64,000 nucleotides of DNA, from the NCBI GenBank assembly GCA_964635195.1, contig CAZWNC010000002.1, positions 3,444 through 67,443 of the forward strand, given 5' to 3'. The notes below the pieces were generated by a model. It was not told where the DNA came from, did not search any database, and was given only the letters and a program-made list of their open reading frames with translations. This DNA comes from an uncultured Candidatus Saccharibacteria bacterium. Lineage in GTDB: Bacteria > Patescibacteriota > Minisyncoccia > Phycocordibacterales > UBA12088. Made by a program: the position numbers and the translations under genes. Shown in pieces: positions 6,335 through 64,000 of this stretch (its first letter is position 1; each line of letters opens with the position of its first letter).

Positions 6335-6393
6335 GCGCGCTACCAACTTGTTCAACGTAAGGACATTCTCTCATGGGGAGTCCCGTATCTGGT

Positions 6394-40987: not shown

Positions 40988-42502
40988 CTATTTCAACAAC
41001 TTGCGCACATCCTCGATCTCTTTGTCGATGAGTTCCTCTGAAATATCGAGTGCGTCTTTGAGTGACTCAAGTATGTTACGCTCGTTATCGGTCATGTTCG
41101 GCTTATGGGAAAGCGCGAGCACCTTTTCTTCGATTTCGTCGCGAAGTACACCGAAAATGTTGATGAGTTTGTCGCCCGCTTCTGCCGCTTCACGCTTGAT
41201 GCGATCCTTCTCTTCGGTATGTCGCCGTCTATCTTGAATGAGAATCGTCACAACGACCGCGAGACACGCCATGAACAGAAGTGATACCCAATATATGGCG
41301 CTAAACCCACTTGTCTTTACCTCGGTGGTCTCCACCTGCTTACTCACACCCGTCACCTCAACCTCCACTGAAGCATCACGTGTGTTACCAGCACGATCGC
41401 GCGCAATGACCTGTATGATATGTTTACCCGGCTCGAGGTTCGCCACAGTAAACGCCCCTCCGACAAGCTCAGAGGGCTGTACATCCCGGGGACGCCCGCC
41501 GTCGATAACAAGCTGGTACAGGTCAAGGCCGGAAAGTGTGTCGACCGCCTCAAACCTCGCTTGCGCGGTATTGTCACCTCCGACACCTGTGACAGTAAAT
41601 TCTTCGGGGGGTGTGGTGTCAATACGAATTGCGTAGTGTGTTGAGGAGCTCCAACCGCCACGATTCTTGTAAGAGATATGAAAATACCACACGCCATCAG
41701 TAATTCCGCTCTTTTTCCATGACGCTATTGGCGGTTCGTGCGCTTCTGCCGGTTCGCTTTCTGGCACATCATCAAAGCCGGCCTTCATTCCGGTCACACC
41801 GTAGGGAATATCCCATGCAAGCACCGCCTCCGTGAGGTTATACCAGACAGCCTGGTCGGGGTGCGAGGTACTCTTCACCACCGGTGCGTCCGGCGCGGGA
41901 ATATTGACCTGTCGTTCCTTGGGTGCGGCCTTGGGTGGCGTCACAGGGGCTGGTGCGGCAGGTGCGGCAGGAGTAATAGTGAACGATCCCCCTGCAGGAG
42001 TACCGGTCAGTTTGTTCGCTCCCCCAACAAGGAGCTGCGGGGCTTTAAAAGAAATCTGTGCAGTCCCCTCTTTTTTCGCACGAAATGTGATTGTAAAGAT
42101 AGTGGCACGCCCGCTTGCGGAACCCGTCGTACCGCACCCAAACTCAATCGTTCCTGCTGTATTGTTGGGTGTGGGTTCCGGAGTACACAAGCTAAACGCG
42201 GCATCTTTTGTTGCCGAAACAACAGTGAGCAGTGCCGGATCGAACGTCACACTTCCGCCGGTCGTGAGTCCCCGTAGCGACTCTCCGGCTGTATCGGCGG
42301 CCACTTTTACCTGAAACGACTGTCCAACCGAGTATGAACCGCTTGCGGGCGTAAGCTCATACGTCGCGGCATGTGTTTGAACAAACGACACCAAACATGC
42401 GGCTAACAAAAACGATACCCGCAGTAGTAGGGTCAGAATCGCTGAATACGGCCGTGTACCTGTCGCATTCGTAGTGTAGTGTGGTGTGCATTGCTCGCTC
42501 AT
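40988..42502 (-). CDS. Membrane-anchored cohesin-domain protein (signal/TM, cohesin-like domain, Pro-rich linker, beta-sandwich domain, C-terminal TM, cytoplasmic coiled coil); start moved to MSEQCT
   Basis: A cohesin-like stretch GSVTFDPALLTVVSATKDAAF...AGTIEFGCGTT...RATIFTITFRAKKEGTAQISF. Linker PAAPAAPAPVTPPKAAP. C-terminal TM FSAIYWVSLLFMACLAVVVTIL followed by a KE-rich coiled coil. The ORF-track N-terminal extension would overlap hsp20. Confidence 0.7.
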   Translation of the reverse strand: MSEQCTPHYTTNATGTRPYSAILTLLLRVSFLLAACLVSFVQTHAATYELTPASGSYSVGQSFQVKVAADTAGESLRGLTTGGSVTFDPALLTVVSATKDAAFSLCTPEPTPNNTAGTIEFGCGTTGSASGRATIFTITFRAKKEGTAQISFKAPQLLVGGANKLTGTPAGGSFTITPAAPAAPAPVTPPKAAPKERQVNIPAPDAPVVKSTSHPDQAVWYNLTEAVLAWDIPYGVTGMKAGFDDVPESEPAEAHEPPIASWKKSGITDGVWYFHISYKNRGGWSSSTHYAIRIDTTPPEEFTVTGVGGDNTAQARFEAVDTLSGLDLYQLVIDGGRPRDVQPSELVGGAFTVANLEPGKHIIQVIARDRAGNTRDASVEVEVTGVSKQVETTEVKTSGFSAIYWVSLLFMACLAVVVTILIQDRRRHTEEKDRIKREAAEAGDKLINIFGVLRDEIEEKVLALSHKPNMTDNERNILESLKDALDISEELIDKEIEDVRKLLK

Positions 42503-42519
42503 AGCAAGGAGCGAGTGAT

Positions 42520-43014
42520 TTACTCGCGTGAGTGTTGCTCGTCGACCCGCACCACGTTGAGGCGCAGACCCTTTGATGCCCGGCCGACAAGCGGTAAGCG
42601 CAGTGCGAGTACCCCGTCTTTTGTTTTTGCTTCGGCACGCTCCGGATCGATCTGGTCGGGAAGAATAATCTGACGATAAAAGTCGCCCCAATGACACTCC
42701 TCGAGAGTGTAGTCGCCATTTTGTGTGCTGTGGACTTCGTGCATCAGACTCTCTGGACGCGCTGCTGAGCCTTGAATGTTCACGACGTCGTTCTCACCCG
42801 AAATAGAAACATCGAGCGTACGCATATCCATGCCGGCAAGCTGCGCATAGATAATGATTTCATCGTCGGACTGAAACACGTCAACGGGAAGCTGGAGTGC
42901 GTGTTCGGGCACGACTTCTTGCGAACCACCGTGCTGCGTCGACGCACCTTCAGTCGGTCTGCCGCTTTGATCGACCAGACCTTTGCCTTTGAGTTTATCC
43001 ATGAATGTACCCAT
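42520..43014 (-). CDS. Hsp20/alpha-crystallin family small heat-shock protein
   Basis: 164 aa with an ACD core VDVFQSDDEIIIYAQLAGMDMRTLDVSISGENDVVNIQGS...GDFYRQIILPDQIDPERAEAKTKDGVLALRLP. Confidence 0.9.
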   Translation of the reverse strand: MGTFMDKLKGKGLVDQSGRPTEGASTQHGGSQEVVPEHALQLPVDVFQSDDEIIIYAQLAGMDMRTLDVSISGENDVVNIQGSAARPESLMHEVHSTQNGDYTLEECHWGDFYRQIILPDQIDPERAEAKTKDGVLALRLPLVGRASKGLRLNVVRVDEQHSRE

Positions 43015-47022: not shown

Positions 47023-48180
47023 TTAGAAGACCGGAGTCGCTACGTAGGTCAAGGTTGCCGTGTAGTCTTTGGCAGCTTCCTGCAGCTCCATGATCTCAGC
47101 CTTGTAGGCAACCGTGGTGGTGCCGATACCTTGTCCTGCGCTCTCCACGACCGCGGTACCATGGTAGAAGACCTCAACCGGGTTGCCGACGAAGTTACCC
47201 ACATACCCCGCTGCGTTGAAGAAGTCGCCGGAAGCAACCGCAGCATCGTCCGAGGTCAAACCCCAGTGACCGTACGTGTCCAACTGCGAGAAGGTGCCTG
47301 CAGGACCCTGCCATGCGGTGGACACCGCCGTGTCAAGACCATCAATAAATGTGTCGATCGTCGCGGTATTGCCCGCGGTAAGGGTTTGATCGGCCTCAAC
47401 CGTGACTGCAAAGCCGTTGTACGCGTTTGTGTTTACCCGCAACTCCTGCGCAATAACACGTGCTGGCTCGGCCGGCGAAATGATGCCGAAAGGCACCGAG
47501 GTGGCGGTCGAAGTGCCGGTGGTGGTATCAACACCATCCACAATCACACCGTTATTGACAGGATTGATGGAAAATTCAAAAACGGTATTTACCTCTGCGG
47601 TCACCGTGACATCGTCGATGATGTAGACACGGGTGTCACCTTCATCGGTAATAGGAGTCGCACCAGTACCCTGGAGACTGATGACAAAGCCGGAAAGATC
47701 TTCCGCAGCGGGATTGTTCACAAAGTTGACCGCACCCACCTGTATAGTAATCACGCCAGCAGCGACTGTGTCACCCGTGCAGACATTTCCAACGATGTAA
47801 TCTCCCGCACCCACCGAAAGCTCTATTTCGGATGCGGTACCGCTACAGTTGCCCGGAGTGACCGCAGTAAAACCAGCTTCACCGCTCTGCAAGTCAGAAT
47901 CAACGAGACCGGTAAAATTAAATCGGTCTGATCCTTCGTCAAAGTAAATTCGAAAATCCTGACCGGTCGTCATGGCATTTGCCGTCGTGAAGGTAATGGT
48001 GTGCATGGCGTCGGCATTGATGTCCGAATCTGTAATCGTGTCACTAAAATCTTGCACGTTCGCGGCTCGTGCTTGCGAAACCCATGAGGGCAAGCCGAAT
48101 GCCCACGCCAAAAGTGCGAGCATCGTTACCAGTGCGACACTCCTCGGCATCGGAAGTGTGAATGCTGTGTTCGTGTTCAT
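47023..48180 (-). CDS. Secreted WxL-like surface protein
   Basis: It has a signal peptide. The C-terminal region has HWGL and ends DYTATLTYVATPVF, resembling the second WxL motif of Firmicute WxL domains (..LTWTL..P). The N-terminal domain resembles that of the dockerin protein. Confidence 0.5.
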   Translation of the reverse strand: MNTNTAFTLPMPRSVALVTMLALLAWAFGLPSWVSQARAANVQDFSDTITDSDINADAMHTITFTTANAMTTGQDFRIYFDEGSDRFNFTGLVDSDLQSGEAGFTAVTPGNCSGTASEIELSVGAGDYIVGNVCTGDTVAAGVITIQVGAVNFVNNPAAEDLSGFVISLQGTGATPITDEGDTRVYIIDDVTVTAEVNTVFEFSINPVNNGVIVDGVDTTTGTSTATSVPFGIISPAEPARVIAQELRVNTNAYNGFAVTVEADQTLTAGNTATIDTFIDGLDTAVSTAWQGPAGTFSQLDTYGHWGLTSDDAAVASGDFFNAAGYVGNFVGNPVEVFYHGTAVVESAGQGIGTTTVAYKAEIMELQEAAKDYTATLTYVATPVF

Positions 48181-48389: not shown

Positions 48390-49763
48390 TTAAGGCTGCG
48401 GAATCGGCATCTCTATCTGGTCACCTGTAGCACGTTCTTCTGTTGCTCGAAACGGCCGCTCGGTGGTGAGTACGTCGGAAAAATAGGCGTGCAACGCGAG
48501 TATGCACAATACCCCGAAGCACACGAAGAGGAAGAATGAACGATAGGTGCGTATGAACGTGCGCATTTCCATGGGGTGTACCGCATGTGTGTCGTGAGGG
48601 GTCGAAACGCCACCAACCCGCCGCAAATCGACCATACTCGCGCGTATCGGTCGTACAAGCGTTTTTAATCGCAATGCCTGACCGGTGTCGATGTCGTACG
48701 TTCGAGTAGCTGATGTCGTGTCACCGGAAACCGCAGGGTTTACGACTGCACTCACCTGCTCGGCACTCGAAACACGCTCAAGCGCAAGAGCCCGTCGGAC
48801 ATATGCGCGTATCGCCCACGCAATGAAGCGAAACACCAAAAAAGCCGCTACAGAGAGTTCGATGAGCGGTATCAAGGGCAGCACCCAGAAGTACGTGGTC
48901 GAGTGCGCAAACTGCTTACTCGTAAGTCCGTACCCAAGAGTCACTTCTGCACGGTATCTGCCGATGTCCCAAACGCCCGCGTCCGAATCCCACGTAAACG
49001 CGTACGAACGGATACTGTTTGGAAGCACATTACCAAAGCCGTTTGTTTGGTTAACGGCTATTTCGCCGCGTTTCTTGCCAAACATGTTGTATATCGTTAT
49101 CGCTCCTTGCGGCTGTAGATGGACATTTCCGAGATTTTCAAACCGGAGCGAGAGTCGTGCACTCGCACGTTCATACAAAGAACGTTCCGTTACAAACTCA
49201 CGCACCCTCCCCCGCTCTACCACGTCACCCGAGACTCGCATAAGCACAAGTGAGGCGATGGCACTGGTTACCGCCACAGTCCCCTCTTCGCGAGCACTGT
49301 CATCCGGTGGACGATTTCCGATAAGCATGGCCGCGTAGTGCCCGCCCGGTGCAGCGTCACTTGGCACCGTGAGTGTAAAGGGGATCTTCAAAGTACCCTC
49401 ACGCACTATCAATTGACCCTCGGCCGGCGCGGTAATCCATGATGCGGACGTGCCTTTTTCAAATACCGGCACACCGCTACTTGCACGTGTTGCATGTATA
49501 AAACGAGGACGGCCGCTTTCCCCGGTCGGCTCAAAACCAACCGGCTCCGCATACACCGTCATATCGTACGGATTACTGTTAACAACGGTTATTTCACTCG
49601 ACCAGGTCTCCCCGGGTGCGATGGATATCTGGAAGAGAGGTGGCGTCACCGTGAATGTCATAGATCCAGCACTACCGGCGTGGGCAAACGGGGCAACACA
49701 CAGGAACAAACAAGAGACGCCGGTCAGCACCAACACATGAGCAAGAAAGAGACGAAAGATCAT
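48390..49763 (-). CDS. Secreted, C-terminally TM-anchored surface protein, paralog 2 of 3
   Basis: Signal MIFRLFLAHVLVLTGVSCLFLCVAPFAHA, block PSDAAPGGHYAAMLIG, C-terminal YFWVLPLIPLIELSVAAFLVFRFIAW anchor. Its start overlaps the stop of the upstream paralog (ATGA-type coupling). Confidence 0.6.
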   Translation of the reverse strand: MIFRLFLAHVLVLTGVSCLFLCVAPFAHAGSAGSMTFTVTPPLFQISIAPGETWSSEITVVNSNPYDMTVYAEPVGFEPTGESGRPRFIHATRASSGVPVFEKGTSASWITAPAEGQLIVREGTLKIPFTLTVPSDAAPGGHYAAMLIGNRPPDDSAREEGTVAVTSAIASLVLMRVSGDVVERGRVREFVTERSLYERASARLSLRFENLGNVHLQPQGAITIYNMFGKKRGEIAVNQTNGFGNVLPNSIRSYAFTWDSDAGVWDIGRYRAEVTLGYGLTSKQFAHSTTYFWVLPLIPLIELSVAAFLVFRFIAWAIRAYVRRALALERVSSAEQVSAVVNPAVSGDTTSATRTYDIDTGQALRLKTLVRPIRASMVDLRRVGGVSTPHDTHAVHPMEMRTFIRTYRSFFLFVCFGVLCILALHAYFSDVLTTERPFRATEERATGDQIEMPIPQP

Positions 49764-51115
49764 ACACGTCTTCGCGAGGAAAGTTGTATCGAACCCCCTT
49801 CAGTAGTTGTCGCTTGTGGTCTACGAGGAACCGTGCCAAGTTGGACCGCCTTACCTTTCGTGACAACATCTTCACTCACCCGAGAAAGTCGAGGAATAGA
49901 TGGTGCATGCGTACTAAGGAGTACAGCGTCAGAGTTTTGTGCCACCGATCGTGATACCCTTGCTATTCGTGGTGGTGGCGGTGGTGAATGATTGTCGAGT
50001 GCGGAATGATGCTCCTCGCTCACAGTCACTACAGCGTGCATGGGACGAGCAACTGCGCGCATATGGACGATGTACGTGCCAATAATCGCGAGGACAAGCA
50101 CGCCACCCAGGGAGACGAGTATCTCTTTCCATGGGAATATCCAAAAGTAGACAGTGTCCTGCACACTCGCAAGCTGATCCTCGCCGTACTCGAGATCCAA
50201 GAACGCTTTATATTTCCCGAAACGACCGCTTGCAGTCCATGCGGCCGCAAGTTCTCGCCTACTCTCGGGAGTAATCTCTTCACCGTCTGCGTTGAGCGGT
50301 ACACTACCCACTTCTTCACCACGACGATTGAAAATTCGAATCGATCCTCTAGGTTGCACCAGCCTGTTACCGACGTTCTCCAGCATGTATGAGAAGTTGA
50401 CCACATCACTCACAACAATCGGATCCTCGGACATGAAACCGCCAAGCTGCAGTCGTTCATTGGCATCATCTTCAACTTCAAGGTTCAAAATGAGCTCCGC
50501 AACCGCTTGTGCTGCTTCAGCCTTGGCGCGGTTTTGACCCTGGTGAAAAGAAATGCGCGCAAAGTATGCCGCGGGTTTTGCACTCAAATTGACGTGAACA
50601 AGATACGGCACCTTTCTGCTTTCGCCGGCCTCAAGCTCAATAACACCGCGTGTTATTTCGACCCAATTCGCAAGTGAGGTCGAAAGATCCGCTTCAAGCG
50701 GGCTCACGGCGATTTGGTCACCCGACATCGGATCGATATTGCTCACCGTAATGTACACACTTACGTGTTGTTCGGTATTGTTCGTAAGGAGTAGTTCTTT
50801 CTTGATAATATCACGCGGTTTCGCTTTTTCATTTGCAACCACCGGGAGCACGGTCACACCTTCAGCCTTTTGAGCTGGTTCTTCTTGCGCACCGACTTCC
50901 GTTTTTACGACATCAGGCAGATCGCCGCCTTCCATACGTGGTTCCACGACTGCGTCACCCTCCTCAGAAACTACACCTTCTTCATCAGACACAATCGAGG
51001 GAGCGTCCGATTCTTCAACTTGCGCGTAGAGCGGCATACACAACACACTTGGAGCGATTACAACGCCAAAAAACAAAGCCACGCTAACGGCTATCCGCAA
51101 CGAGTTGGTATGCAT
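49760..51115 (-). CDS. Secreted, C-terminally TM-anchored surface protein, paralog 3 of 3; start moved to MHTNSLRIAV
   Basis: Signal LRIAVSVALFFGVVIAPSVLC, an acidic segment, and a C-terminal VYFWIFPWKEILVSLGGVLVLAIIGTYIV anchor. The ORF-track N-terminal extension would overlap the next gene. Confidence 0.6.
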   Translation of the reverse strand: MHTNSLRIAVSVALFFGVVIAPSVLCMPLYAQVEESDAPSIVSDEEGVVSEEGDAVVEPRMEGGDLPDVVKTEVGAQEEPAQKAEGVTVLPVVANEKAKPRDIIKKELLLTNNTEQHVSVYITVSNIDPMSGDQIAVSPLEADLSTSLANWVEITRGVIELEAGESRKVPYLVHVNLSAKPAAYFARISFHQGQNRAKAEAAQAVAELILNLEVEDDANERLQLGGFMSEDPIVVSDVVNFSYMLENVGNRLVQPRGSIRIFNRRGEEVGSVPLNADGEEITPESRRELAAAWTASGRFGKYKAFLDLEYGEDQLASVQDTVYFWIFPWKEILVSLGGVLVLAIIGTYIVHMRAVARPMHAVVTVSEEHHSALDNHSPPPPPRIARVSRSVAQNSDAVLLSTHAPSIPRLSRVSEDVVTKGKAVQLGTVPRRPQATTTEGGSIQLSSRRRV

Positions 51116-51176
51116 ATCTCCATTGTAGCGCACTCCCGGGACTCGCGTGAGTAAACGATACCGCGAGGTGGGGATA

Positions 51177-51767
51177 TCACAACACAAAGAGCATGTACGC
51201 TCCCGTAAGTACCGGGAGGAAGAAATTATCTGAACCTCGATGTGCCACCGCTTCAACGACTGCAAGCAGTACACCTCCCAGTAGGGCCATCGGTACATCA
51301 ATGCCGAAGAGCCACAGCAGTGCTGCCGAAATGAAAAACGCAGCGCAGGACCCCTCCCATGTTCTCAATTCACCCAACACTCGATATTCGTGTATCCCCC
51401 AGAGCCCCCCAACGAGTGCAGCACCCGTGTCCGCACAGCCAAGCACAAGCATAGCGGCCAAAAAGGCATGCTGCTGCTCAGGAACATATAGAAATACACT
51501 TACCCCAACGCCCAAGGCGAAGTAGAGGTCACCCGCACTTCGCGCATGCACCATGCGCAAGCGTTCGAACGAGTGCATACTTCGCGCAACGAGAAAACTG
51601 ATGAAAAGCACCCCTGCCGCTGCCGCAAGCGGGTACCGGAGGTCGAGCCCGTGCGTAGCACCATAGTACGACACTCCCGCGAAAGCGAGGGCCAAGACAA
51701 AGTGAATGAACTTGCGAAGACTTTTCACCATACATACACAGTTCGTACGCAAAACGAGCCGCAACAC
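51177..51767 (-). CDS. Polyprenol (dolichol/phytol) kinase-like CTP-dependent membrane kinase (CdsA superfamily)
   Basis: Polytopic, with the motif CADTGAALVGGLWGIHEYRVLGELRTWEGS and a downstream DN, as in dolichol/phytol kinases. Confidence 0.5.
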   Translation of the reverse strand: MLRLVLRTNCVCMVKSLRKFIHFVLALAFAGVSYYGATHGLDLRYPLAAAAGVLFISFLVARSMHSFERLRMVHARSAGDLYFALGVGVSVFLYVPEQQHAFLAAMLVLGCADTGAALVGGLWGIHEYRVLGELRTWEGSCAAFFISAALLWLFGIDVPMALLGGVLLAVVEAVAHRGSDNFFLPVLTGAYMLFVL

Positions 51768-54961: not shown

Positions 54962-57900
54962 TTAATGCTTTGTCTGCAGCGCCGCAATGTCACTCATCAA
55001 CTCACCCAGTGTTTCTCCACTCTTTGCCGCACGATCGATACAGTTTCCAATATCGACCCTTAGCTGTCCTTGCTCAGCAAATTGCACACGACTCAAGATG
55101 TCCTTCAGCACCTCCTCTGTATGTGAGGAAAAATTGATGGCGATTCCTCCGAGGTCGTACTGCAAACCCGGTGTCGGATCATACAGATCACCAACTTTGA
55201 GAAACGCAAGTGGTTCCCAGCTGTCTTTCAGGACCTGCGGAAGCGTTTCGGGCATCTCAGCTACTATCTTCGGGTTCTCAAATACGACCGACTGGAATGC
55301 CCCTTTTGTCAATTCAGGTAGTGAACCATCACGAGGAAATTCGCCTCCCGAATCAAGTAGGTGATCGACTTTTGCATCAAATCCCGCAAGCTCGCTTGTA
55401 ACCTGGTTTACGTAGGGAAAGTCTCCCCATGCGACCGTCTGTTGGTAGCGGTTCTTAAACGCTTCCACCTGGTCGACCTGTATGGGGCCGTCCGAGCTTT
55501 CCGGTACTTGTTGTGTACGTGGAGTGTCTTCACTTCCCTGTTGCGCAGTATGCGGCTCTTGCGTGTCACCGGTAGCCGGTGACGGTTCGTGTCCTTCTAC
55601 AGTATTCGGCGCATGGGTGGGAGCGCCTCCTTGCACACCACCGCTAGCCACAGACTCCTCGAGACCGTACTTTGCAGCATACTCATCGGGTACGGCAATA
55701 GTAAGGTGTGCGCCCGCGCGTATGTTATCGACATTCATTATCTCTTTACCATCCACGGTCGCCACGTGCGAATCGTTTTCCATACGTTCCAGAAGCACAC
55801 GTTGCGCCTCGGGAAGCTGCTCTGCGGAGACCCCCTCATTGGTAAGGTGCTCGCCAACGATACCTGAAAGTGTCACTCCTTCCGGTATGGTGAGCGACAC
55901 ATCGGCAGTGGCCGACAAAGGTGGACGCACCAGCGCATAGATTCGCTGCATGTGATCATCGGGAATGGAGAAATCAAATGCTTCCTTCGCGTATATTCTG
56001 TTCACGTCACCACCTTTCACCACACTATGGTCTTTTACATACTCGAGCATGTTCCCCACCACACGCATTTGCTCTCCTTTACTCAACTCTTTGTACCATG
56101 CGGTATCCTCCACAGATCGACGGAGCACACCCCACACTGTATCGCCTCGTGCAAATGTTCCCTCCGTGTGCACACCGGACACAAGATGCTCGGGGCTCAC
56201 AGGTGTGTCGGGCAACTGTTCTGCGGCATCAGGAGCAGTATCCACTGTCACAACGTCTTCATGGGGAGTGTCAGGTACTGTCAAGTCAGTATCCTGCCCA
56301 AACTTCACACGTGCTGCAGTGAGTCGTGCCTCCTCCATGTCCTTCGCATTGTTAGCAGACGCTTGCCCCTTCGCAAGCTCATCAGAGCTTGGTGTCTGGT
56401 CGATTGTAGGGATCGGCTCATGCGGGACTTCTCTCACAGTGGGTGCTGTATCTTTCGCGTCAATATCGCTCAATGGGTCTGGCAGCAATGTCGACAGCGG
56501 TTCCGGTATGACACCGACCTCAAAGGTCGGTGTGGAATCTGAAACAGGGGTTTGCAACACCTCGTCAATGAGTTGCTGAATATCGAGGGAATCCAACGAC
56601 TCATCCGGTGGTAGCACAACGGGTACTCCTTGCTCCGTGACCGACACCACGTCAGGCACAGCGGCCTCCTCCAGCACCGCAGTTCCAGTTGAAGCGCTCG
56701 GTGGCGTAGGTAGACCCTCCTCTCCAGGAAGTCCGATATGTTTATTGAAATCTTCCACAACCCCGAGAACACCCGGTGACACTTGTGGTAGGGGTGGGGT
56801 TTCTGCTACTGAAGAAACTCCATCAATTACGTCAACGCCGGCATCTAAGCCGGACTGGACAGCACTTGCAGCACCCGCACCCGTGGCATACGCTACCGCT
56901 CCCACAGCACCGATGGCAGCAACAGTCGTCGCGCCTTTTTTTACTCTTTCTGTTCGCTCAATCTTGTCAAGATCATTACGAAGCACTGATAGACGCATAG
57001 TGCCCGCCTCACCGGTAAGCCCCTCGAGCGCGAGATTTGTTTTTTGCTCAGTATCCTTTTTGATAACCTCATGTATCTTGGGTACCACTTTTCCAAACAC
57101 ACCTCCGGCTACGGCACTCGAAACACCCGTTGCAACAAGTTTTCGTCCTGCACCAATACCGCCCGCCGCAAGAATTGAAAGTGCCCCACCTCCTGCAAAC
57201 AGCGCAACCCCACCTGCAAGTGCCGCGCCGATTGCTACTTTTTGGGTAAGTGTTCTGCCTCCAAACCACTTACCGACTTTCGCCAAACGTGCGAGCGTAG
57301 GGTTTTCTTTCCCGCCCGTAGTTTCTTTGGCAGACTCGATTGCTTTTCTGTCCTCCATGGTCGTGAGGTACGCCGTAGCTATATAAAAAGCCTCCATTTT
57401 GGTTTCATCCAAAACACCTCCTCCTGAATCACGCTTCTTTGCACGCGATTCTACGAGAGCCTTGAGTGCACTCTTGCGCGCTTCAATGAGGTTCGCAGAC
57501 GTATCCAAGTACGTGTCATATTCCCGGAGCGCTTTCGTATATACCTCATCCTTTTGGTCAGGCTTCACCGTTTTAAGGAATTTGCTAAACATACCGCTCT
57601 GTGCACGATCTTCTGTACGTTCTTTGAGTTTTTCGAGAAAATGAACACGAGCGTGCGCTAGACGTTCCTTATTCTCAATATATGCAACGCGAGCCTGATG
57701 ATACCCCTCCAAAGATGCATCGGCCTCGCCCTTCTTAACAAGCTCCTGCACAACCGCAAGCTTCGCAACCGCCTTTGTTAGTGGTGCACTCTTCTCTTCC
57801 TCAATTTCCGCCACTTTTTCAGTGGGTGTACCTGCTTCAAGACTTCTGTCGAGTTGCGGCTTCTTGTAGTACATGTCGCGGACCTCCTGAAGCGCTATAC

Positions 57901-59011
57901 CCCGCAACTCGGCACGATGTGCCGTAAGCATATTTTTCTTCGCGTCACTCGGCACACCTTCATCCTTTTGCATCGCTTTTAACTGCCTCCGAACCTCCAC
58001 CCTGCGCTCCCCCAACTCCGTCCGAGGAGCGTTTTTCACCTGCAGAACATCCGCAGATTCGGGTGTGTGCACTGTGTCGGAACCCTGTTGCAACGAAGCC
58101 AAAATCTCTACCTCATTGCTTGTTTTACGTACATCGACATGCTGATGCTGTGTTACTTCAGAGGGGGTCATCTCCACCGCAGAAGCGACAGTCCCATGGC
58201 CCTGCGTGATTGACAATAAAGCACCTGACTCAGGTATGGACTGTTCCGCAAGGAGAAACTTTTCCCAGTTTTTCTGCGCTTCCGTGGTTCGCGCTGCGGC
58301 AGGAGATGGGGCCGGTTGTGCTGTGATCCCAATCTTCTGCACTTCCAAAGGCAGCGGTGCAATAGGAGGGCAGACGGCCTGCTTGTTCGTCACCTCCTCC
58401 GAACCTAATGTGCTGTCCGGTACCGGAACTGCTTTCCGGACAGTTACCGGAATGACGACTTCCTGTTTCTTTTGCTCAACAGGCTCCGTATCCTTCGCAC
58501 CCTCTTGCGGTACGTCCATCATACCCTGCAATCGCTCTTTAATAGTACGAGGCAGACTGACCTTTTCAAGCGCAACCGCAAGCTCCTTGCGTGCCGAATT
58601 GTCTCCCTTATTCATACGTCGACATATCGCACGAAGTTCCTCCAAACTTGCGATGAGCGACTCGCGTCCCACCACTTCAGTTCCGATTGTGAGATGTTCC
58701 TTTTTTTCTTGACCGAGCAAATCACACATATTCATCAACGACAGTCGCATGTCGTCATCCAGGATAGCCGCATTCAGTGTATACACTACTTCCTCCTCCG
58801 TGAGCGCAGTAACGTTATGTTCTTGATTGTTCGAACGTCTATTGTTTTGAAACCGATTGGGGGAACCGGATAGTGTCTGAACCTTTTCCAAAGTATGTGT
58901 TTCCTGCCTCAACTGCGACTTCGCGGACTGCATGCCTTGCTCATAAGGACGGAGCTGTACTCGATGGCTATCTGGTATCGGTACTGTTTCAGTTCTTCGC
59001 CCTTTAAACAT
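54962..59011 (-). CDS. Large (1,349 aa) hypothetical membrane protein with Gly/Ala-rich TM hairpins and long coiled-coil and acidic regions
   Basis: A central AIGAALAGGVALFAGGGALSILAAGGIGAG and a second AAIGAVGAVAYATGAGAASAV hydrophobic pair, with extensive K/E-rich helices. No catalytic motif. Confidence 0.55.
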   Translation of the reverse strand: MFKGRRTETVPIPDSHRVQLRPYEQGMQSAKSQLRQETHTLEKVQTLSGSPNRFQNNRRSNNQEHNVTALTEEEVVYTLNAAILDDDMRLSLMNMCDLLGQEKKEHLTIGTEVVGRESLIASLEELRAICRRMNKGDNSARKELAVALEKVSLPRTIKERLQGMMDVPQEGAKDTEPVEQKKQEVVIPVTVRKAVPVPDSTLGSEEVTNKQAVCPPIAPLPLEVQKIGITAQPAPSPAAARTTEAQKNWEKFLLAEQSIPESGALLSITQGHGTVASAVEMTPSEVTQHQHVDVRKTSNEVEILASLQQGSDTVHTPESADVLQVKNAPRTELGERRVEVRRQLKAMQKDEGVPSDAKKNMLTAHRAELRGIALQEVRDMYYKKPQLDRSLEAGTPTEKVAEIEEEKSAPLTKAVAKLAVVQELVKKGEADASLEGYHQARVAYIENKERLAHARVHFLEKLKERTEDRAQSGMFSKFLKTVKPDQKDEVYTKALREYDTYLDTSANLIEARKSALKALVESRAKKRDSGGGVLDETKMEAFYIATAYLTTMEDRKAIESAKETTGGKENPTLARLAKVGKWFGGRTLTQKVAIGAALAGGVALFAGGGALSILAAGGIGAGRKLVATGVSSAVAGGVFGKVVPKIHEVIKKDTEQKTNLALEGLTGEAGTMRLSVLRNDLDKIERTERVKKGATTVAAIGAVGAVAYATGAGAASAVQSGLDAGVDVIDGVSSVAETPPLPQVSPGVLGVVEDFNKHIGLPGEEGLPTPPSASTGTAVLEEAAVPDVVSVTEQGVPVVLPPDESLDSLDIQQLIDEVLQTPVSDSTPTFEVGVIPEPLSTLLPDPLSDIDAKDTAPTVREVPHEPIPTIDQTPSSDELAKGQASANNAKDMEEARLTAARVKFGQDTDLTVPDTPHEDVVTVDTAPDAAEQLPDTPVSPEHLVSGVHTEGTFARGDTVWGVLRRSVEDTAWYKELSKGEQMRVVGNMLEYVKDHSVVKGGDVNRIYAKEAFDFSIPDDHMQRIYALVRPPLSATADVSLTIPEGVTLSGIVGEHLTNEGVSAEQLPEAQRVLLERMENDSHVATVDGKEIMNVDNIRAGAHLTIAVPDEYAAKYGLEESVASGGVQGGAPTHAPNTVEGHEPSPATGDTQEPHTAQQGSEDTPRTQQVPESSDGPIQVDQVEAFKNRYQQTVAWGDFPYVNQVTSELAGFDAKVDHLLDSGGEFPRDGSLPELTKGAFQSVVFENPKIVAEMPETLPQVLKDSWEPLAFLKVGDLYDPTPGLQYDLGGIAINFSSHTEEVLKDILSRVQFAEQGQLRVDIGNCIDRAAKSGETLGELMSDIAALQTKH

Positions 59012-59112: not shown

Positions 59113-62100
59113 CTAGAATACTGGTACAACGATATACACCAGCTTACTCTCGTACAGACCTGCCGCTTGGCCGATATTTGCTCGAATGCGGTACACGATA
59201 TCAGTCGACTCCGCGGGAACAGGCCCGCCACTGTACGCCACCTCGGCAGCTGCATTGGAAAGAGCGGCAAACGTATCGGGCGCCAAAAAGCGTGTCGAAC
59301 CACCGGCGAGCGTGTTGTCCCCCGCATGGTAACCAAAGCAACTGGGAGCGAGCACTGCACATCCGCTACTCCAGCCTACCGGAGCGGCGTTGGTGCCGGT
59401 GATACCCTGTATGGTCTGGCCGGCACCTGCGGTCAACGGTTGTCGCTCGTAGGCGAACACCTGGTAGCCATTACTCGCATTGGTCGAAACCGTCAAACGC
59501 TGTGCGGCATTGAGGTCCGTCCCAAGGGAAAGAGACCCAAACGGAATAGAGAGTGCGGTCGTTGTAACGTCCATCACCACCCCTTCGGTCGAAGACCCGC
59601 TTGCAACACCACTTACCGTGAAAGTCACCTCACCGCTTGCAGACACAATCGACGGATAACTCCCGGGCACAGTCGAAGTACTGACCGGCGCGTCCGCGTT
59701 CACGTCATACACCCGGAAGTAGTAGACCTGCCCAACCGCAGCGTCCTTGTGCATCAACGTAAACTCATGTTCCTGTACCGCACCTGCAGGGAAAGAAACT
59801 CCGCTTGCGCCCCCACGATACAGAACGCCACTCGAGGTACCGAACGCAAAGTATCCCACCCCTTCATTTCCATGCGAACGCTCGCCATCATCTCGCTCAT
59901 CGATTGCAAAGAGAGTACTTTCACTCATGACCTCATCGTAGCGCACCCAACCACCCTCGGCACCATTGCGGGTCTGTTTACTTGCCACGAGACCCGGTAC
60001 ACGGGTAAACCAGTCGAAAGGAAACAGCTCTTGATACCACGGGGTGTTTGACCAACCCGAAACAACCACTCCGGTCGTCGTTGCGACGATAGGGGTACCG
60101 TTATTCTTGAACGCACCCCCCTCGATCGCCACCCAGCCATACGTTTCCGGCATCGTCGGCTCGTTTGTTTCGCCGTCGGGTACCTCCATTGAGCACGCGA
60201 AGTCGTTTGCTGTCACAAGCGCCTGCGACGCCGTGAGAAAGTCGGGGGTTCCCGTATTATTGTCTGTTTGGAGTGAGGTCAAGAGGATGGGTGCATCAGA
60301 GAATGTCTGCGTGAAGCTACAAGTATCGTCGGAAGCGCCTGAGACATCGCTCCCGTAGTAGTGCATGGTATCACGCGTTCCCACGTCCACACGCCTCCCG
60401 TCCGGCAAGAGGTGTGCTCCCCGTTCCATCACAACATACCCGACCGTCTCAGGTCCGTGTGAACCCACCTCATTGTCAGGCCGTATAATACGCACGGTCA
60501 CACTGTTCGTCGAAGTACCGGTAATACTTGCAACAGCCGGCCGATTACCTGCACCACCGCCACTATCGCCGGAAATAGCTTCGACGATAAACACCGGGTC
60601 ATCGTAGGTGTGCAAAAGTGAAATAGTGGTACCTGTGCCATCCACAGAAGTGGTGCCCACTTCTCCGATCACATCGGGCGAATACGTGTACTCGGTGTGT
60701 GTACCGCAGCCATCACCCACACCACCACTGCATGCATTGGCGGTAAGGACAACGTCTTGCACGGGCTCCCCTTCTTCACCCGCACCATTTGCCATACACC
60801 ACCGCGAGCCATACACACAGGTGTCTTGGTCGACCACATCGTACGCAACACTGAAATCAGACAGGGTCGAGTACTGGAGCTTGAACTTCACATTTGTCCC
60901 CGTTTTGCCCGCCACCTCAGCAAGGGTAACACGTAGCTTGAACACGTCACCCGGCCCCACTCCCGAAGGAGCCGTGTTCGTTGCAGCGAGGGGACTAACG
61001 GGAGTGAGTGATGTCTCGTCGTCAAAGAAACGCCAGTTGCCCTGTGTCACTTCGAAACCTGCCGTTGTAAGCGTTGGGTGGTAGGTGTACGTTGCAAACT
61101 CGCTCAAATCATCATTCACCATACGGAAACAGTACGCGGTCTTATCTGCCACACCGTTCGGGGTAAGCACCCAATCATACTCAACATCATCATTTATCCT
61201 CAGCTTGTAAGGATTCAATGATGTTCGTCCCGACTCCTCGTAGGTGCCCGCACGGTCCGCTACCGAAAGATTGAGATCGCCTCCGGTGGGGGGGTCGCCG
61301 GAGAGCGCTGTACCGGCAAGAGGTGAGGCGTTGTAACCGCGCCATATTGTGGTTGAAGCGCTGTCACCCACCTCATGCCATTCAGTGATGGCCCCGCACA
61401 CAGTAGTACGCACACCGTACTGTAGTCTAAAACGCTTCGTCTCACGCGAGACACTCGAGCCATGTACCAAAACGGACATGCGCAGACGCAATACGTCACC
61501 TTCGGTGGGAGGATCGTCGGAAAGTGTAATCGGCGCATATTCTCCCAAATTCCCCGCACCCGGTGGCCACGCGTCGGTGGGATCAAGCGCATCGTTGTTG
61601 TCGTACCATTGGTAAAAATTTTGTTCGAACGCAAGCTCGGCGGTCGGCCACTCCACCACTTCGGTCCGGTACGAACGAGCGGAACCGGTATCGGATATCC
61701 ACAATTCGTAGTGCGTCGTCGAGGCAATGGTCGCACCCATGATGGCTCGCGGGTGTGCAGTAGTGTTGCCGAGACCGATCATGTTCATAAAAATCGAGCT
61801 GTTCGAAAGTGCGGAAAGGGTGGTGCCAATCGGAATGGAATAAGTTGACGGTTCGACACCACCCGATGCTTGTGGGTTATTACTTCGCGTGACCTTCAGC
61901 GGACTCCCGTTCGTTTGGGTATTTTCGATCACCCACGCAACATGCACGTGGGTGTTCGCAGAGGCAGCGGTCGAAGGAATGTAGTACGACACCTGCCCCA
62001 CCGACGAAAGCCACACTTCGTGACCGAACTCATCAACCTGATTCACCCCAACACGCTTTTGAGTGTGTAGAAACGCGCGTGAAGCATCATTGACGGCCGT

Positions 62101-64000
62101 AATATTCTCCACCTCGGTGTTACCGGCGGTTGCGTGGGCGTGCTCCTTACGCTGTATCTTCCAGTTCGAGCCGGTAAATTCAACGACCGCATAACTCACG
62201 ACACTTGCAACCGATCCGGTGGTACCCCGCGTAAAAGTAGTGGTATCATCACCCGCATTCCACACAGCAGTGGAAATACCCGCATTGTAGTTTGTCGTAT
62301 TTGCAGCAGGGTTACGTTGTCCCGTGATGAACACCACAACATCCGCATCATCTACGACATCGGAAGCCGCTGACGTTGTTGCATAGAGCGACGTCGAAGT
62401 GTATGCGAGTGCTTCCTGCGCGCGGACCTTCATTTCATTGTCTCCGCCCGAAGGCCCAATATACTCCACAACCTCCCAGTACACACGCGTATTGTTTGTT
62501 GTCCCCGCTCGTGCAAATGTTACTCCGGTCATGAGGTCGCTCGGGTTCACGATGCTGACCGTTACATTACTCGCGTTTTGCGCACCACCACCACTGTTGG
62601 CACCCGCTCCCGTATACATGGCGTTCGTAATACGCACAAAGGCACTGGTGCTTGCTTTTGGTGCGACGTATTCGGCACCTGCGGTGATATTCACGGTAGA
62701 CGCGCCCGCTCCTATCGTACTTACTCCTCGTTGAATATAAAAATCCTGATTGGTGCGAACGGTCGCTTGTGGGTATGCATCATACGTTTCGAGCGGTGAG
62801 CCACCTGCCGTCAAACGGAAACAGTATGTCCCTCCGAACGCGGCATTTCCGGTCGGTTCAAGTGCATACTCAAGCTCGAGAAAATTCGTCGACAAAAGTG
62901 TGAGGGCTGAGGTCGTTGCAGTTGTATCGCGCACCCCGCCGTTTGGTGTCTTAAACGTTGTGTTTGAGTCGGTGACGCCACCCGTACCGACCCCAATGTT
63001 CGTCGTATCCGCACCATTAGTGAGGTAGGATGAGTCCGAGAGCGTCCATGCACCATTTACTGTTTCAATAGGTAACCATGCTCCTATCGCATCGCAGGTA
63101 CTTACCCGTTCAGCATACTCAAGCCCAAAAGAAGTGGGGAGACTTGGTGAGGAACCACCCTTTGATGCTTCGATGCGCAAGCGAATTGGCTCATTATGCA
63201 CCACACCGGATACGGGTGTGTCCTCAACCCCTCCCGTCGCTGAGGTGGCACCCGACTCACTTCCGTCGTCATTACGCCAGTGGTAGTGCGTCTGCGAGAT
63301 AAGTGCTTTCTCGATTGTGGTAGAACCGGTAATGGCAACTGGGGTGTTCGGATTGACCGTACCTGCGGACACCACCACTTCGCTACCCGGATTTGAAATT
63401 TCAACATCAATCGTGTCATTAGCAGATGCGCTCGTGTCCACATCAACAACCGCATACACACACATCGCGGACGTGGTCGAAATGCCAACCGAACCGCCAA
63501 AGTATGCCGAACCATCTGCACCCGAAAAGCTTGAGGAGGCGCTGCCGTACTGCGCTTCGTCACCACCATACGACACATCCGAACAATCGTACGGTGTCGT
63601 GGTACTCATCTCATACAAAAGGCGAACATTCGACAGATCGTTTTGCGCGTCCACCGACCCGTTCTCGGTAAGCGTGATGGCTGTCACGTTGCGTGAAGCC
63701 ACTTGATCCTCAATGAGGAACGCGCCACCAAGGTACTGACTGACCCCGGGCGACACAGCGGTTGTTGCTTGCGTTCCAACGGCGCTCACCATCACCGCCG
63801 CAGTCATCGTAGATTCACCATATATATTGTATGCAGGTAACGGGGTACCGGCATCCGTGACACGAAAACAGTAGGTCGTACCGTCGGTTGCTCCGGAGAG
63901 CGCCCGTATCGCATACTCGATCTCGACGAACTCCGTTTCGGCAAGCGTCACCCCTCCTGTCTGTGATGAGGTGTCCTTTACGGCGCCATTTGGTGTTTTG
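59113..64000 (-). CDS. Second giant modular surface protein, 5' end beyond the window (at least 1,628 aa visible)
   Basis: The frame is open from the window edge; the ORF-track start at 63951 is a GTG inside a longer open frame. It has repeated ~150-aa modules ([HF]Y.W(R).DDG ... LRLR ... LQY ... YCFR) that also occur in the 6,783-aa protein. Confidence 0.75.
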   Translation of the reverse strand, partial: KTPNGAVKDTSSQTGGVTLAETEFVEIEYAIRALSGATDGTTYCFRVTDAGTPLPAYNIYGESTMTAAVMVSAVGTQATTAVSPGVSQYLGGAFLIEDQVASRNVTAITLTENGSVDAQNDLSNVRLLYEMSTTTPYDCSDVSYGGDEAQYGSASSSFSGADGSAYFGGSVGISTTSAMCVYAVVDVDTSASANDTIDVEISNPGSEVVVSAGTVNPNTPVAITGSTTIEKALISQTHYHWRNDDGSESGATSATGGVEDTPVSGVVHNEPIRLRIEASKGGSSPSLPTSFGLEYAERVSTCDAIGAWLPIETVNGAWTLSDSSYLTNGADTTNIGVGTGGVTDSNTTFKTPNGGVRDTTATTSALTLLSTNFLELEYALEPTGNAAFGGTYCFRLTAGGSPLETYDAYPQATVRTNQDFYIQRGVSTIGAGASTVNITAGAEYVAPKASTSAFVRITNAMYTGAGANSGGGAQNASNVTVSIVNPSDLMTGVTFARAGTTNNTRVYWEVVEYIGPSGGDNEMKVRAQEALAYTSTSLYATTSAASDVVDDADVVVFITGQRNPAANTTNYNAGISTAVWNAGDDTTTFTRGTTGSVASVVSYAVVEFTGSNWKIQRKEHAHATAGNTEVENITAVNDASRAFLHTQKRVGVNQVDEFGHEVWLSSVGQVSYYIPSTAASANTHVHVAWVIENTQTNGSPLKVTRSNNPQASGGVEPSTYSIPIGTTLSALSNSSIFMNMIGLGNTTAHPRAIMGATIASTTHYELWISDTGSARSYRTEVVEWPTAELAFEQNFYQWYDNNDALDPTDAWPPGAGNLGEYAPITLSDDPPTEGDVLRLRMSVLVHGSSVSRETKRFRLQYGVRTTVCGAITEWHEVGDSASTTIWRGYNASPLAGTALSGDPPTGGDLNLSVADRAGTYEESGRTSLNPYKLRINDDVEYDWVLTPNGVADKTAYCFRMVNDDLSEFATYTYHPTLTTAGFEVTQGNWRFFDDETSLTPVSPLAATNTAPSGVGPGDVFKLRVTLAEVAGKTGTNVKFKLQYSTLSDFSVAYDVVDQDTCVYGSRWCMANGAGEEGEPVQDVVLTANACSGGVGDGCGTHTEYTYSPDVIGEVGTTSVDGTGTTISLLHTYDDPVFIVEAISGDSGGGAGNRPAVASITGTSTNSVTVRIIRPDNEVGSHGPETVGYVVMERGAHLLPDGRRVDVGTRDTMHYYGSDVSGASDDTCSFTQTFSDAPILLTSLQTDNNTGTPDFLTASQALVTANDFACSMEVPDGETNEPTMPETYGWVAIEGGAFKNNGTPIVATTTGVVVSGWSNTPWYQELFPFDWFTRVPGLVASKQTRNGAEGGWVRYDEVMSESTLFAIDERDDGERSHGNEGVGYFAFGTSSGVLYRGGASGVSFPAGAVQEHEFTLMHKDAAVGQVYYFRVYDVNADAPVSTSTVPGSYPSIVSASGEVTFTVSGVASGSSTEGVVMDVTTTALSIPFGSLSLGTDLNAAQRLTVSTNASNGYQVFAYERQPLTAGAGQTIQGITGTNAAPVGWSSGCAVLAPSCFGYHAGDNTLAGGSTRFLAPDTFAALSNAAAEVAYSGGPVPAESTDIVYRIRANIGQAAGLYESKLVYIVVPVF

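Follow-up and report, generated by a model that had tools for sequence, protein, structure and literature searches.

A giant modular protein with a candidate C-terminal docking domain at a conserved Patescibacteria surface locus

The 64,000-nucleotide stretch of DNA analysed here (the window; contig CAZWNC010000002.1, positions 3,444 to 67,443 of the forward strand, GenBank assembly GCA_964635195.1, from an uncultured Candidatus Saccharibacteria bacterium that GTDB places in the Patescibacteriota) ends in a minus-strand open reading frame (ORF), G2, that runs off its edge. Judged by its sequence, G2 is the ortholog of a conserved Patescibacteria family, of the Paceibacteria type within the candidate phyla radiation (CPR), of predicted secreted, non-enzymatic surface proteins. 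We consider it about evenly probable that G2 is the distal 60% of a cell-surface protein of ~2,700 amino acids (aa) that docks through its C terminus in the manner of the WxL (Csc) proteins and whose stalk is built from a repeated module. The first-pass annotation of the window had described G2 as the second of two giant modular genes, the other encoding the 6,783-aa protein G1. Going beyond that description, we find the orthology of G2, a nested 294-aa insert in one of its modules, a C-terminal domain common to G2 and a small neighbouring protein, and a conserved multi-gene surface locus at 40988-64000.

Frame, modules and orthologs of G2

G2 terminates at a TAA codon at 59113-59115 and is free of stops for 1,628 codons back to 63999. 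The first-pass annotation had given a frame open from 64000 to 59113 and encoding at least 1,628 aa; openness and length stand, but the start shifts, 64000 being one base off-frame and 63999 right. The fragment opens mid-domain, with residues 1-65 corresponding to the C-terminal third of a module, so the gene must extend upstream of the window, in agreement with the annotation's view of a second very large ORF running off the edge. The closest relative, P0001, is 2,727 aa long, begins with an N-terminal signal peptide and is 81% identical across the entire fragment; therefore ~1,100 G2 residues probably lie past the window, and the full protein would be ~2,700 aa, with the last ~60% in hand. 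We infer the upstream part from this ortholog because attempts at extension gave none: a 60-mer taken from the end of the window had no exact counterpart in the GTDB representative genomes, and of the neighbouring genes used to extend the contig, M1349 had no match on record and o385 matched only a 2.3-kb Logan contig.

Copies of the module in G2 and G1 were located with a seed hidden Markov model (HMM) and refined with a second HMM (A1) from a 50-sequence alignment. Against circularity, subtype HMMs (types AB, C and D) were built solely from sequences outside the window. These external HMMs recover every module copy, with E values of 1e-5 to 1e-87, and the count is one edge-cut, two complete and one split module in G2 and two full copies and one fragment in G1. 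The frame and the copies (all minus strand) are:

59113-63999, minus strand: G2, open frame; probable C-terminal 1,628 aa of a giant secreted protein, 5′ end past the window edge
63805-63999, minus strand: edge-cut module, last third (G2 1-65); non-seed copy; HMM independent E value (iE) 2.8e-12; external type-AB HMM 2e-29
62758-63303, minus strand: complete module, 'HYHWRNDDG' subtype (G2 233-414); external type-C HMM 1e-25, type-AB HMM 5e-79
61060-61632, minus strand: complete module, 'NYYRFY..DP.D.WP' subtype (G2 790-980); BLASTP against G1 E=1.3e-25; AlphaFold2 (AF2) predicted local distance difference test score (pLDDT) 96.3
60685-61050, minus strand: split module D, N-terminal two-thirds (G2 984-1105); external type-D HMM positions 3-122, iE 1.2e-43
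59641-59802, minus strand: split module D, C-terminal third (G2 1400-1453); external type-D HMM positions 127-177, iE 1.8e-13
32845-33396, minus strand: module copy in G1 (2400-2583); external type-C HMM 1.4e-51; BLASTP match to G2
21052-21609, minus strand: module copy in G1 (6329-6514); A1 HMM 9e-27; external HMMs 2e-10 and 7e-17
22372-22539, minus strand: module fragment in G1 (6019-6074, 'SQTHFRFRNDDG'); external type-AB HMM positions 4-67 only, 3e-6

The external type-C HMM also matches G2 9-62 (7e-11), and its spans in G1 are 2404-2582 and 6362-6512 (the latter at 2e-10). The out-of-window HMMs thus bear out two first-pass claims, that at least four modules recur in G2 and that the same module occurs in the 6,783-aa protein; its length is ~180 aa in place of the ~150 aa first given. 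The self-similarity of the modules, on which the first-pass reading had been made partly to depend, is evident from the HMMs, but not from BLASTP of G2 against itself, which gave no off-diagonal match and is too insensitive for copies this divergent (mutually ~19-25% identical).

The G2 copy closest to those of G1 is G2 790-980. BLASTP aligns G2 738-979 with G1 2361-2582 at 31.8% identity (E=1.3e-25), and G2 module C is 37% identical to the G1 copy versus 19-24% to the other G2 modules, which argues that the module subtypes are old and that no recent duplication has taken place. Modules account for 38% of the G2 fragment and 6% of G1, and we found no similarity between G1 and G2 outside the module.

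The two halves of module D align to consecutive positions of the type-D HMM (3-122 and 127-177), on either side of the nested insert. In shorter homologs module D is contiguous, with 68% query coverage. In G1, the 'SQTHFRFRNDDG' fragment is the first third of a module only and is followed by DUF2341 at ~6082-6154; with this LamG-like domain directly after 'SQTHFRFRNDDG', G1 6019-6154 (22372-22539 and ~22132-22350, minus strand) may be a second split module with a nested domain, comparable to G2 module D.

The AF2 model of the module, from the 50-sequence alignment, is all-beta (pLDDT 96.3, predicted TM-score (pTM) 0.92), and its invariant residues are R, C, Y and R. Foldseek searches of the PDB returned weak immunoglobulin-like (Ig-like) or E-set matches only, with a best query-normalized TM-score (TMq) of 0.38; they include RhoGDI (E=4e-4, TMq 0.35), a stalk domain of the CLIPPER adhesin (target-normalized TM-score (TMt) 0.53) and the N-terminal beta-sandwich of GH123. 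The best E value in a PDB profile search with the module was 0.24. Nor is there a curated family: the 50 copies matched nothing consistently in Pfam and nothing in NCBIfam, and no Pfam family covers the module in seven proteins rich in it. An exhaustive profile search of 1.84 billion cluster representatives retrieved 4,080 proteins at E<=1e-3, of which 2,403 reach E<=1e-10 and 669 reach E<=1e-30. Tandem arrays of 13-21 copies occur in some of these; giants of 5.8-7.6 thousand residues carry 3-5. Two tandem arrays (P0241 and P0243; 10-13 copies) start with a type IV pilin N_methyl leader, and the module therefore also appears to form the shaft in giant proteins that resemble pilins. It is an uncurated extracellular stalk domain that occurs widely and is combined with several different anchors. 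We rejected a phage origin, with no match among the viral models of BFVD at E<=1e-3, and also an isopeptide, CLIPPER-like stalk, given the weak fold match and the lack of a conserved Lys/Asn/Asp triad.

More than 614 homologs of G2, at 45-81% identity, were found, all annotated as 'hypothetical' and all from Patescibacteria sources; the named ones carry labels such as Kaiser-, Nomura-, Pace- and Minisyncoccia. P0001 has five modules after its signal peptide, and its gene order is that of the window: giant gene, 1,353-aa gene, small gene, aminotransferase. The modal family member has ~2,055 aa, laid out as signal peptide, ~590 aa, module A, a 165-aa spacer, module B, a ~380-aa domain, modules C and D and a 180-aa C-terminal domain. 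Across the family the module positions are conserved, with 1 to 6 copies and other beta-sandwich domains between them, and the N-terminal region is variable. Length across 63 genomic copies runs from ~440 to >3,300 aa, the ~440-aa minimal member being a signal peptide, one type-D module and the C-terminal domain; from this size series we take module D and the C-terminal domain to be the invariant core and the N-terminal part to be variable. The minimal members come from lineages labelled Jorgensen-, Yanofsky-, Sung- and Harrisonbacteria. Three regions of G2 lie between or within the modules:

63313-63804, minus strand: 165-aa spacer domain (G2 66-229); no Pfam match; repeated in P0001
61633-62754, minus strand: ~375-aa inter-module domain (G2 416-789); same position in all family members; no Pfam match
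59803-60684, minus strand: nested 294-aa insert in module D (G2 1106-1399); absent from ~2,050-aa members; no Pfam or PDB match

The two P0001 copies of the spacer (814-980 and 1164-1328) are 42% and 78% identical to G2 66-229. Within G2 416-789, '..VVE[YF]' strand motifs recur at residues 508, 603 and 688, which suggests an internally repeated beta structure without a Pfam counterpart. Three or four units ending in aromatic-x-V-V-E-aromatic can be discerned there, and the nested insert has a comparable motif at residue 1188.

The G2 fragment has no transmembrane helix and an isoelectric point of 4.4; both G2 and G1 are acidic, with a high content of Thr, Gly, Ala and Ser. Neither contains an LP.[TSA]G (LPXTG) motif, a C-terminal transmembrane helix or a Pfam match to the RTX family. 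No Pfam or NCBIfam family matched G2, its sub-regions or M1349, and searching the PDB by sequence, with G2 or with the profiles of the module and the C terminus, yielded no usable match.

The C-terminal domain and the partner genes

The C terminus of G2 is occupied by a domain that we name PVF after its last residues, and that recurs in a small secreted protein encoded in the same locus:

59116-59640, minus strand: C-terminal PVF domain (G2 ~1454-1628), ending ...AGLYESKLVYIVVPVF-COOH; proposed anchor or docking domain
47023-48180, minus strand: o385, small secreted 385-aa protein with signal peptide; C-terminal ~175 aa are a PVF domain (HMM 7e-47)

The domain spans ~180 aa with a mean column identity of 54%, invariant N, G, W, G, D, F, Q, Y and terminal F, and the consensus end ...AG.Y...[LI].Y[IL].VPVF-COOH. 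It stands at the extreme C terminus in all 107 non-truncated homologs (of 120). Its presence in o385, which carries an extra N-terminal domain of ~190 aa, is supported by a match between the G2 C terminus and the o385-family homolog L006_2308 (E=1.5e-11) and by a profile-profile comparison of the small and large PVF families (probability 99.9%, E=2e-31). The domain is absent from G1, has no Pfam or NCBIfam match and contains neither a transmembrane helix nor an LPXTG motif. AF2 models it as a beta-sandwich (pLDDT 89.7) in which a long coil tethers the first strands; Foldseek against the PDB ranks the TasA fibre 8aur_A first (E=5.9e-3, probability 0.95, TMq 0.40) and chaperone-usher pilins next, with every match weak (E>=6e-3, TM-score <=0.40). 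Like the module, the PVF domain is without a curated family, and it is a new C-terminal domain family.

An extreme C-terminal domain shared by a large and a small secreted protein recalls the Firmicute WxL (Csc) cluster. Such a cluster encodes a small WxL protein, a WxL-interacting protein, WxLIP, and a large protein that begins with Ig-like or adhesive domains and has its WxL domain at the C terminus (PMC9772566, PMC10599100). WxLIP consists of DUF916, DUF3324 and a transmembrane helix in 337-365 aa (PMC10599100). Peptidoglycan and WxLIP are the proposed binding partners of the WxL domain, into which a WxLIP hairpin is predicted to insert (PMC9772566, PMC10599100). Probable homologs of the WxLIP component (o513, o457 and o407) and further genes are encoded downstream of G2:

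49760-51301, minus strand: o513, WxLIP/DUF916-like membrane-anchored protein; BLASTP 2e-44 to the L007 335-aa protein; signal peptide and C-proximal transmembrane helix
48390-49763, minus strand: o457, second WxLIP/DUF916-like membrane protein; homolog of the ~545-aa gene; transmembrane helices
45721-46944, minus strand: o407, third WxLIP-like paralog; BLASTP 7e-43 to the L006 543-aa protein; C-terminal transmembrane helices
43178-45064, minus strand: o628, secreted, Big_13 and C-terminal dockerin (Pfam); homolog of L005/L006 366-aa genes
40988-42697, minus strand: o569, membrane-anchored, cohesin and Big_13 (Pfam Cohesin 30 bits); homolog of L005/L006 586-aa genes; transmembrane helix 465-483
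54962-59011, minus strand: M1349, ORF of 1,349 aa immediately following G2; signal peptide absent; a single hydrophobic stretch, centrally placed

The arrangement is conserved. In three distant near-complete genomes, a ~615-aa protein is encoded upstream of the giant gene and proteins of ~335 and ~545 aa directly downstream, with cohesin, dockerin and Big_13 proteins and an o385-like gene nearby; the window homologs of the conserved cluster genes are o513, o457, o407, o385, o628 and o569, with o513 the homolog of the ~335-aa gene. Across 78 loci in GTDB representative genomes, 65 of which extend at least 2.5 kb downstream of the giant gene, the 335/545 pair follows that gene directly in 49/65, is displaced by 1-9 kb in 10/65 and is absent in 6/65. 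A 615-like gene lies directly upstream in 32/52 loci, and an o385-like gene follows the pair in 18-19 of the 78. In the window the pair sits ~7.8 kb downstream (giant-gene stop at 59113, o513 start at 51301), comparable to the displaced arrangement in the closest relatives. The ~440-aa members occupy the slot of the giant gene upstream of the WxLIP-like pair (L018, L019, L024, L031, L033, L043, L044, L046, L047 and others).

The 335/545 family has a signal peptide, an ectodomain of ~250 aa and a transmembrane helix. WxLIP_PGBD (PF06030, DUF916) is matched by 36/104 of its members, one above the gathering score, and 24/104 carry LytR_C. The L006 and L007 relatives of o457, ~39-40% identical to it (E=1e-94 to 9e-97), match WxLIP_PGBD at 29.8 bits (gathering cutoff 27.3) and 21 bits. 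A tblastn search with one ectodomain reached annotated DUF916 proteins in Streptomyces and Clavibacter and homologs in Deinococcus (E=6e-7).

The cohesin of o569 and the dockerin proteins suggest a second, cohesin-dockerin mode of surface assembly in the same cluster. A 248-aa protein with both cohesin and dockerin is encoded at L006 7160-7906, and the N-terminal domain of o628 resembles that of o385. M1349 is conserved solely in the closest relatives (L001, L009), again between the giant gene and the WxLIP-like pair, and looks as if it had been inserted into the operon in that lineage. In L005-L007 and in 26-28 of the 78 loci, the pair is often followed by genes for a ~160-aa membrane protein and a thiol-disulfide redoxin (AhpC-TSA/Redoxin); this linkage fits a need for extracytoplasmic disulfide handling, as both the module and the PVF domain have conserved cysteines. 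At 17763-18776 (plus strand), close to the 3′ end of G1, a 337-aa ORF with an HTH_38/Tc3-transposase-like N terminus may be the remnant of an insertion sequence. The window also encodes the housekeeping proteins GAPDH, RNase J, a PBP2-type transpeptidase, MraW, RelA/SpoT and CorA; Rfam and tRNA scans found no RNA genes in it, and terminator and promoter matches in the gap between G2 and M1349 were at chance level only.

Proposed mechanism and alternatives

From the gene layout we infer C-terminal anchoring of a cell-surface fibril, a candidate host-attachment device. G2 would be exported through Sec, with the PVF domain emerging last; this domain would dock non-covalently to the ectodomains of the WxLIP-like proteins and/or to peptidoglycan, possibly by beta-strand insertion, and o385 would occupy or cap equivalent docking sites. 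The chain of modules would form a stalk reaching tens of nanometres out from the cell. Ligand binding, by contact with host cell or substrate, would probably fall to the nested insert and the N-terminal domains, by analogy with the split domains of RTX adhesins, in which nested inserts in split stalk domains mark ligand-binding domains (PMC12077191). The module would be a reusable stalk unit, which G1 and pilin-type proteins may pair with different anchors. For such acidic, Thr/Gly/Ala/Ser-rich chains of beta-sandwiches, with a signal peptide or membrane anchor in their full-length relatives, the first-pass label 'adhesin-like' is reasonable.

Several results weigh against WxL-like docking of a host-attachment fibril. 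First, among the proteins of the window, o407 matches WxLIP_PGBD at a sub-threshold 15 bits and o457 and o513 have no direct match; they are assigned to WxLIP because they are homologous to better-scoring relatives. Second, no DUF3324 (host-binding) domain was found among the WxLIP-like family. Third, ~7.8 kb of unrelated genes (M1349, an aminotransferase and an M17 peptidase) part G2 from the WxLIP-like genes. Fourth, G2, its C-terminal 189 aa, o385 and two o385 homologs have no match to WxL itself (PF13731) at E<=5, and the PVF domain does not contain the two W-x-L motifs, Y-x-[VI] replacing W-x-L. Fifth, an hhalign comparison of the PVF domain with a Streptomyces WxL-like alignment gave P=0.04-0.5, equal to a negative control with the unrelated module. 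Sixth, the molecular function of WxL clusters is itself largely predicted. Finally, a host-specific adhesin would not be expected to show identity as high as 45-60% across candidate phyla, a level that fits a structural component of the envelope equally well.

We think it unlikely that G2 belongs instead to a TasA-like or pilin-like fibre, in which the PVF domain would polymerise, o385 would form the fibre by donor-strand complementation, G2 would be a tip or decorating subunit and the WxLIP-like proteins a base or platform. The ranking of the TasA fibre 8aur_A and then chaperone-usher pilins among the PDB matches points this way, as do the occurrence of the PVF domain in both a large protein and a small one of the abundant type, the conserved extreme C-terminal strand with its terminal Phe, and the N-terminal strand on a long coil in the model. 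However, every structural match is weak (TM-score <=0.40, none at E<=1e-3), there is no Pfam match to Peptidase_M73/TasA, and o385 carries its extra ~190-aa N-terminal domain; no usher or chaperone is found among the window ORFs scanned, and no SipW-type signal peptidase or TapA among those of at least 150 aa or the conserved neighbours.

Somewhat less probable again is an S-layer-like or cell-wall scaffold, with G2 serving the integrity of the envelope and not attachment. This would account for the unusually high conservation of sequence and architecture across candidate phyla, for the usual single-copy state of the gene and its place in a fixed operon alongside membrane proteins bearing the cell-envelope domain LytR_C, and for the frequent linkage of a thiol-disulfide redoxin gene. 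A roughly eight-fold range in length (440 to >3,300 aa) through gain and loss of modules is, however, unexpected for a lattice former; the nested insert and variable N terminus resemble binding heads; and the Pfam scan found no SLH or S-layer domains.

The cohesin (o569) and dockerin (o628 and the 248-aa L006 protein) proteins of the locus raise a further alternative, a cellulosome-like cohesin-dockerin machine with carbohydrate-binding modules that binds or degrades host or environmental glycans. The weak resemblance of the module to the GH123 N-terminal beta-sandwich, the position of actinobacterial DUF916 genes next to GH43/Ricin proteins and the original proposal of a role for Csc clusters in carbohydrate utilisation (PMC1534035) are in keeping with it. 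We nevertheless consider it improbable: searches of G2, G1 and the conserved neighbours turned up no catalytic domain, G2 has neither dockerin nor cohesin, and the structural matches of the module are to generic Ig-like folds.

Least probable, and already contradicted at the level of the whole gene, is the first-pass proposal that G1 and G2 are modular paralogs, giant adhesin genes that arose by duplication within the locus: they lie 18.5 kb apart on the same strand and have the module in common (E=1e-25), but a single mobile domain making up so little of G1 is all that they share, G1 has no PVF domain, G2 orthologs keep their synteny in genomes without an adjacent G1-like gene, and the module occurs in thousands of otherwise unrelated proteins.

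Returning to C-terminal docking of G2 to WxLIP-like partners, a broader proposal is one that we put forward tentatively and hold with distinctly less confidence. The PVF domain may be an unrecognised docking module for DUF916/WxLIP-type proteins and the locus a conserved surface organelle of Paceibacteria, with a ~440-aa core extended in some lineages to fibrils of 2,000 to >3,300 aa; it could then be the long-sought host-attachment structure of these episymbionts, and WxLIP an ancient, general docking platform of monoderm envelopes of which the Firmicute WxL system is one offshoot.

Among the bacteria of groundwater and sediment, Paceibacteria and Parcubacteria account for a large share, and they are thought to live attached to host cells; to our knowledge, almost nothing is known of how they attach beyond type IV pili. 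The locus described here defines a conserved operon in which a giant modular protein is encoded along with a small protein paralogous to its C-terminal domain and with two or three membrane anchors of the WxLIP-like kind, together with an uncatalogued Ig-like domain (at least 4,000 protein clusters) and the new C-terminal domain family. It would thereby carry WxLIP-based surface display outside Firmicutes and Actinobacteria; the literature searched contained no paper linking WxL, DUF916 or WxLIP with Patescibacteria. It also provides targets for co-folding, metaproteomics, labelling in cryo-electron tomography and domain curation.

Comparison with known systems

The locus shares most with the WxL clusters of Lactobacillales, Listeria and Enterococcus: a large secreted protein with Ig-like domains, a signal peptide and the cluster domain at its extreme C terminus; a small secreted protein (o385) bearing the same domain; a membrane protein probably homologous to DUF916/WxLIP_PGBD; and a large protein without a sortase motif among proteins that are acidic. 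It differs in that the G2-family protein is 2-5 times longer than large WxL proteins (500-1,000 aa), o385 has its additional N-terminal domain, the WxLIP-like paralogs number two or three and some of them carry LytR_C, the anchor domain ends in PVF-COOH, and the host is a member of the Patescibacteria, whereas >91% of WxL sequences come from Firmicutes (PMC9772566).

Two conserved strands of the PVF domain read G-Y-Q-V and L-x-Y-[IL]-x-V-P-V-F. This aromatic-x-aliphatic pattern on two strands, the G.Y...L.[WLY].[LV] end and the tethered N-terminal strand make a WxL-like pattern that is suggestive but is not evidence. The WxL-like reference reached in our searches is a Streptomyces GH43-Ricin protein adjoining a DUF916 gene, at 19.5 bits against PF13731, with one homolog named 'WxL domain-containing'; tblastn of the o385 C terminus against plasmids gave noise only. 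The designation of the PVF domain as a divergent WxL domain was dropped after the hhalign result at control level. We therefore describe the locus as having a WxL-cluster-like logic, with a probable WxLIP homolog as putative partner and a distinct anchor domain, and do not call it a member of the WxL systems. On Streptomyces and Clavibacter plasmids (L087 3867-5807, L089 4876-5502), DUF916-adjacent proteins end in ...GDY.gT[LI]TL[TS]L[LFE]-COOH, one of these neighbours being a GH43-Ricin enzyme with a sub-threshold WxL match, which suggests divergent WxL-type anchors on glycoside hydrolases in Actinobacteria.

With fibrillar and RTX adhesins, such as the Aeromonas hydrophila RTX adhesin (PMC12077191) and the CLIPPER adhesin (PDB 9ifr), G2 has in common a chain of Ig-like stalk domains, one of them split by an insert. 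Unlike them, it has no RTX repeats, type I secretion system (T1SS) signal, LPXTG motif or isopeptide-type triad, and its proposed anchor is a novel C-terminal beta-sandwich. The PVF domain weakly resembles TasA/camelysin fibre subunits (PDB 8aur) in being a beta-sandwich with a loosely tethered N-terminal strand, at a TM-score of just 0.40, but it has no sequence or Pfam match to them (including Peptidase_M73/TasA), and SipW and TapA genes are missing from the ORFs scanned. Finally, similar to the giants reported from metagenomes of CPR bacteria and Omnitrophota, G2 belongs to multi-thousand-residue proteins rich in Thr, Ser, Gly and Ala, with a signal peptide, from ultrasmall and probably host-dependent bacteria. 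Those giants are lineage-specific, whereas the G2 family consists of defined orthologs in a conserved operon with named partner families.

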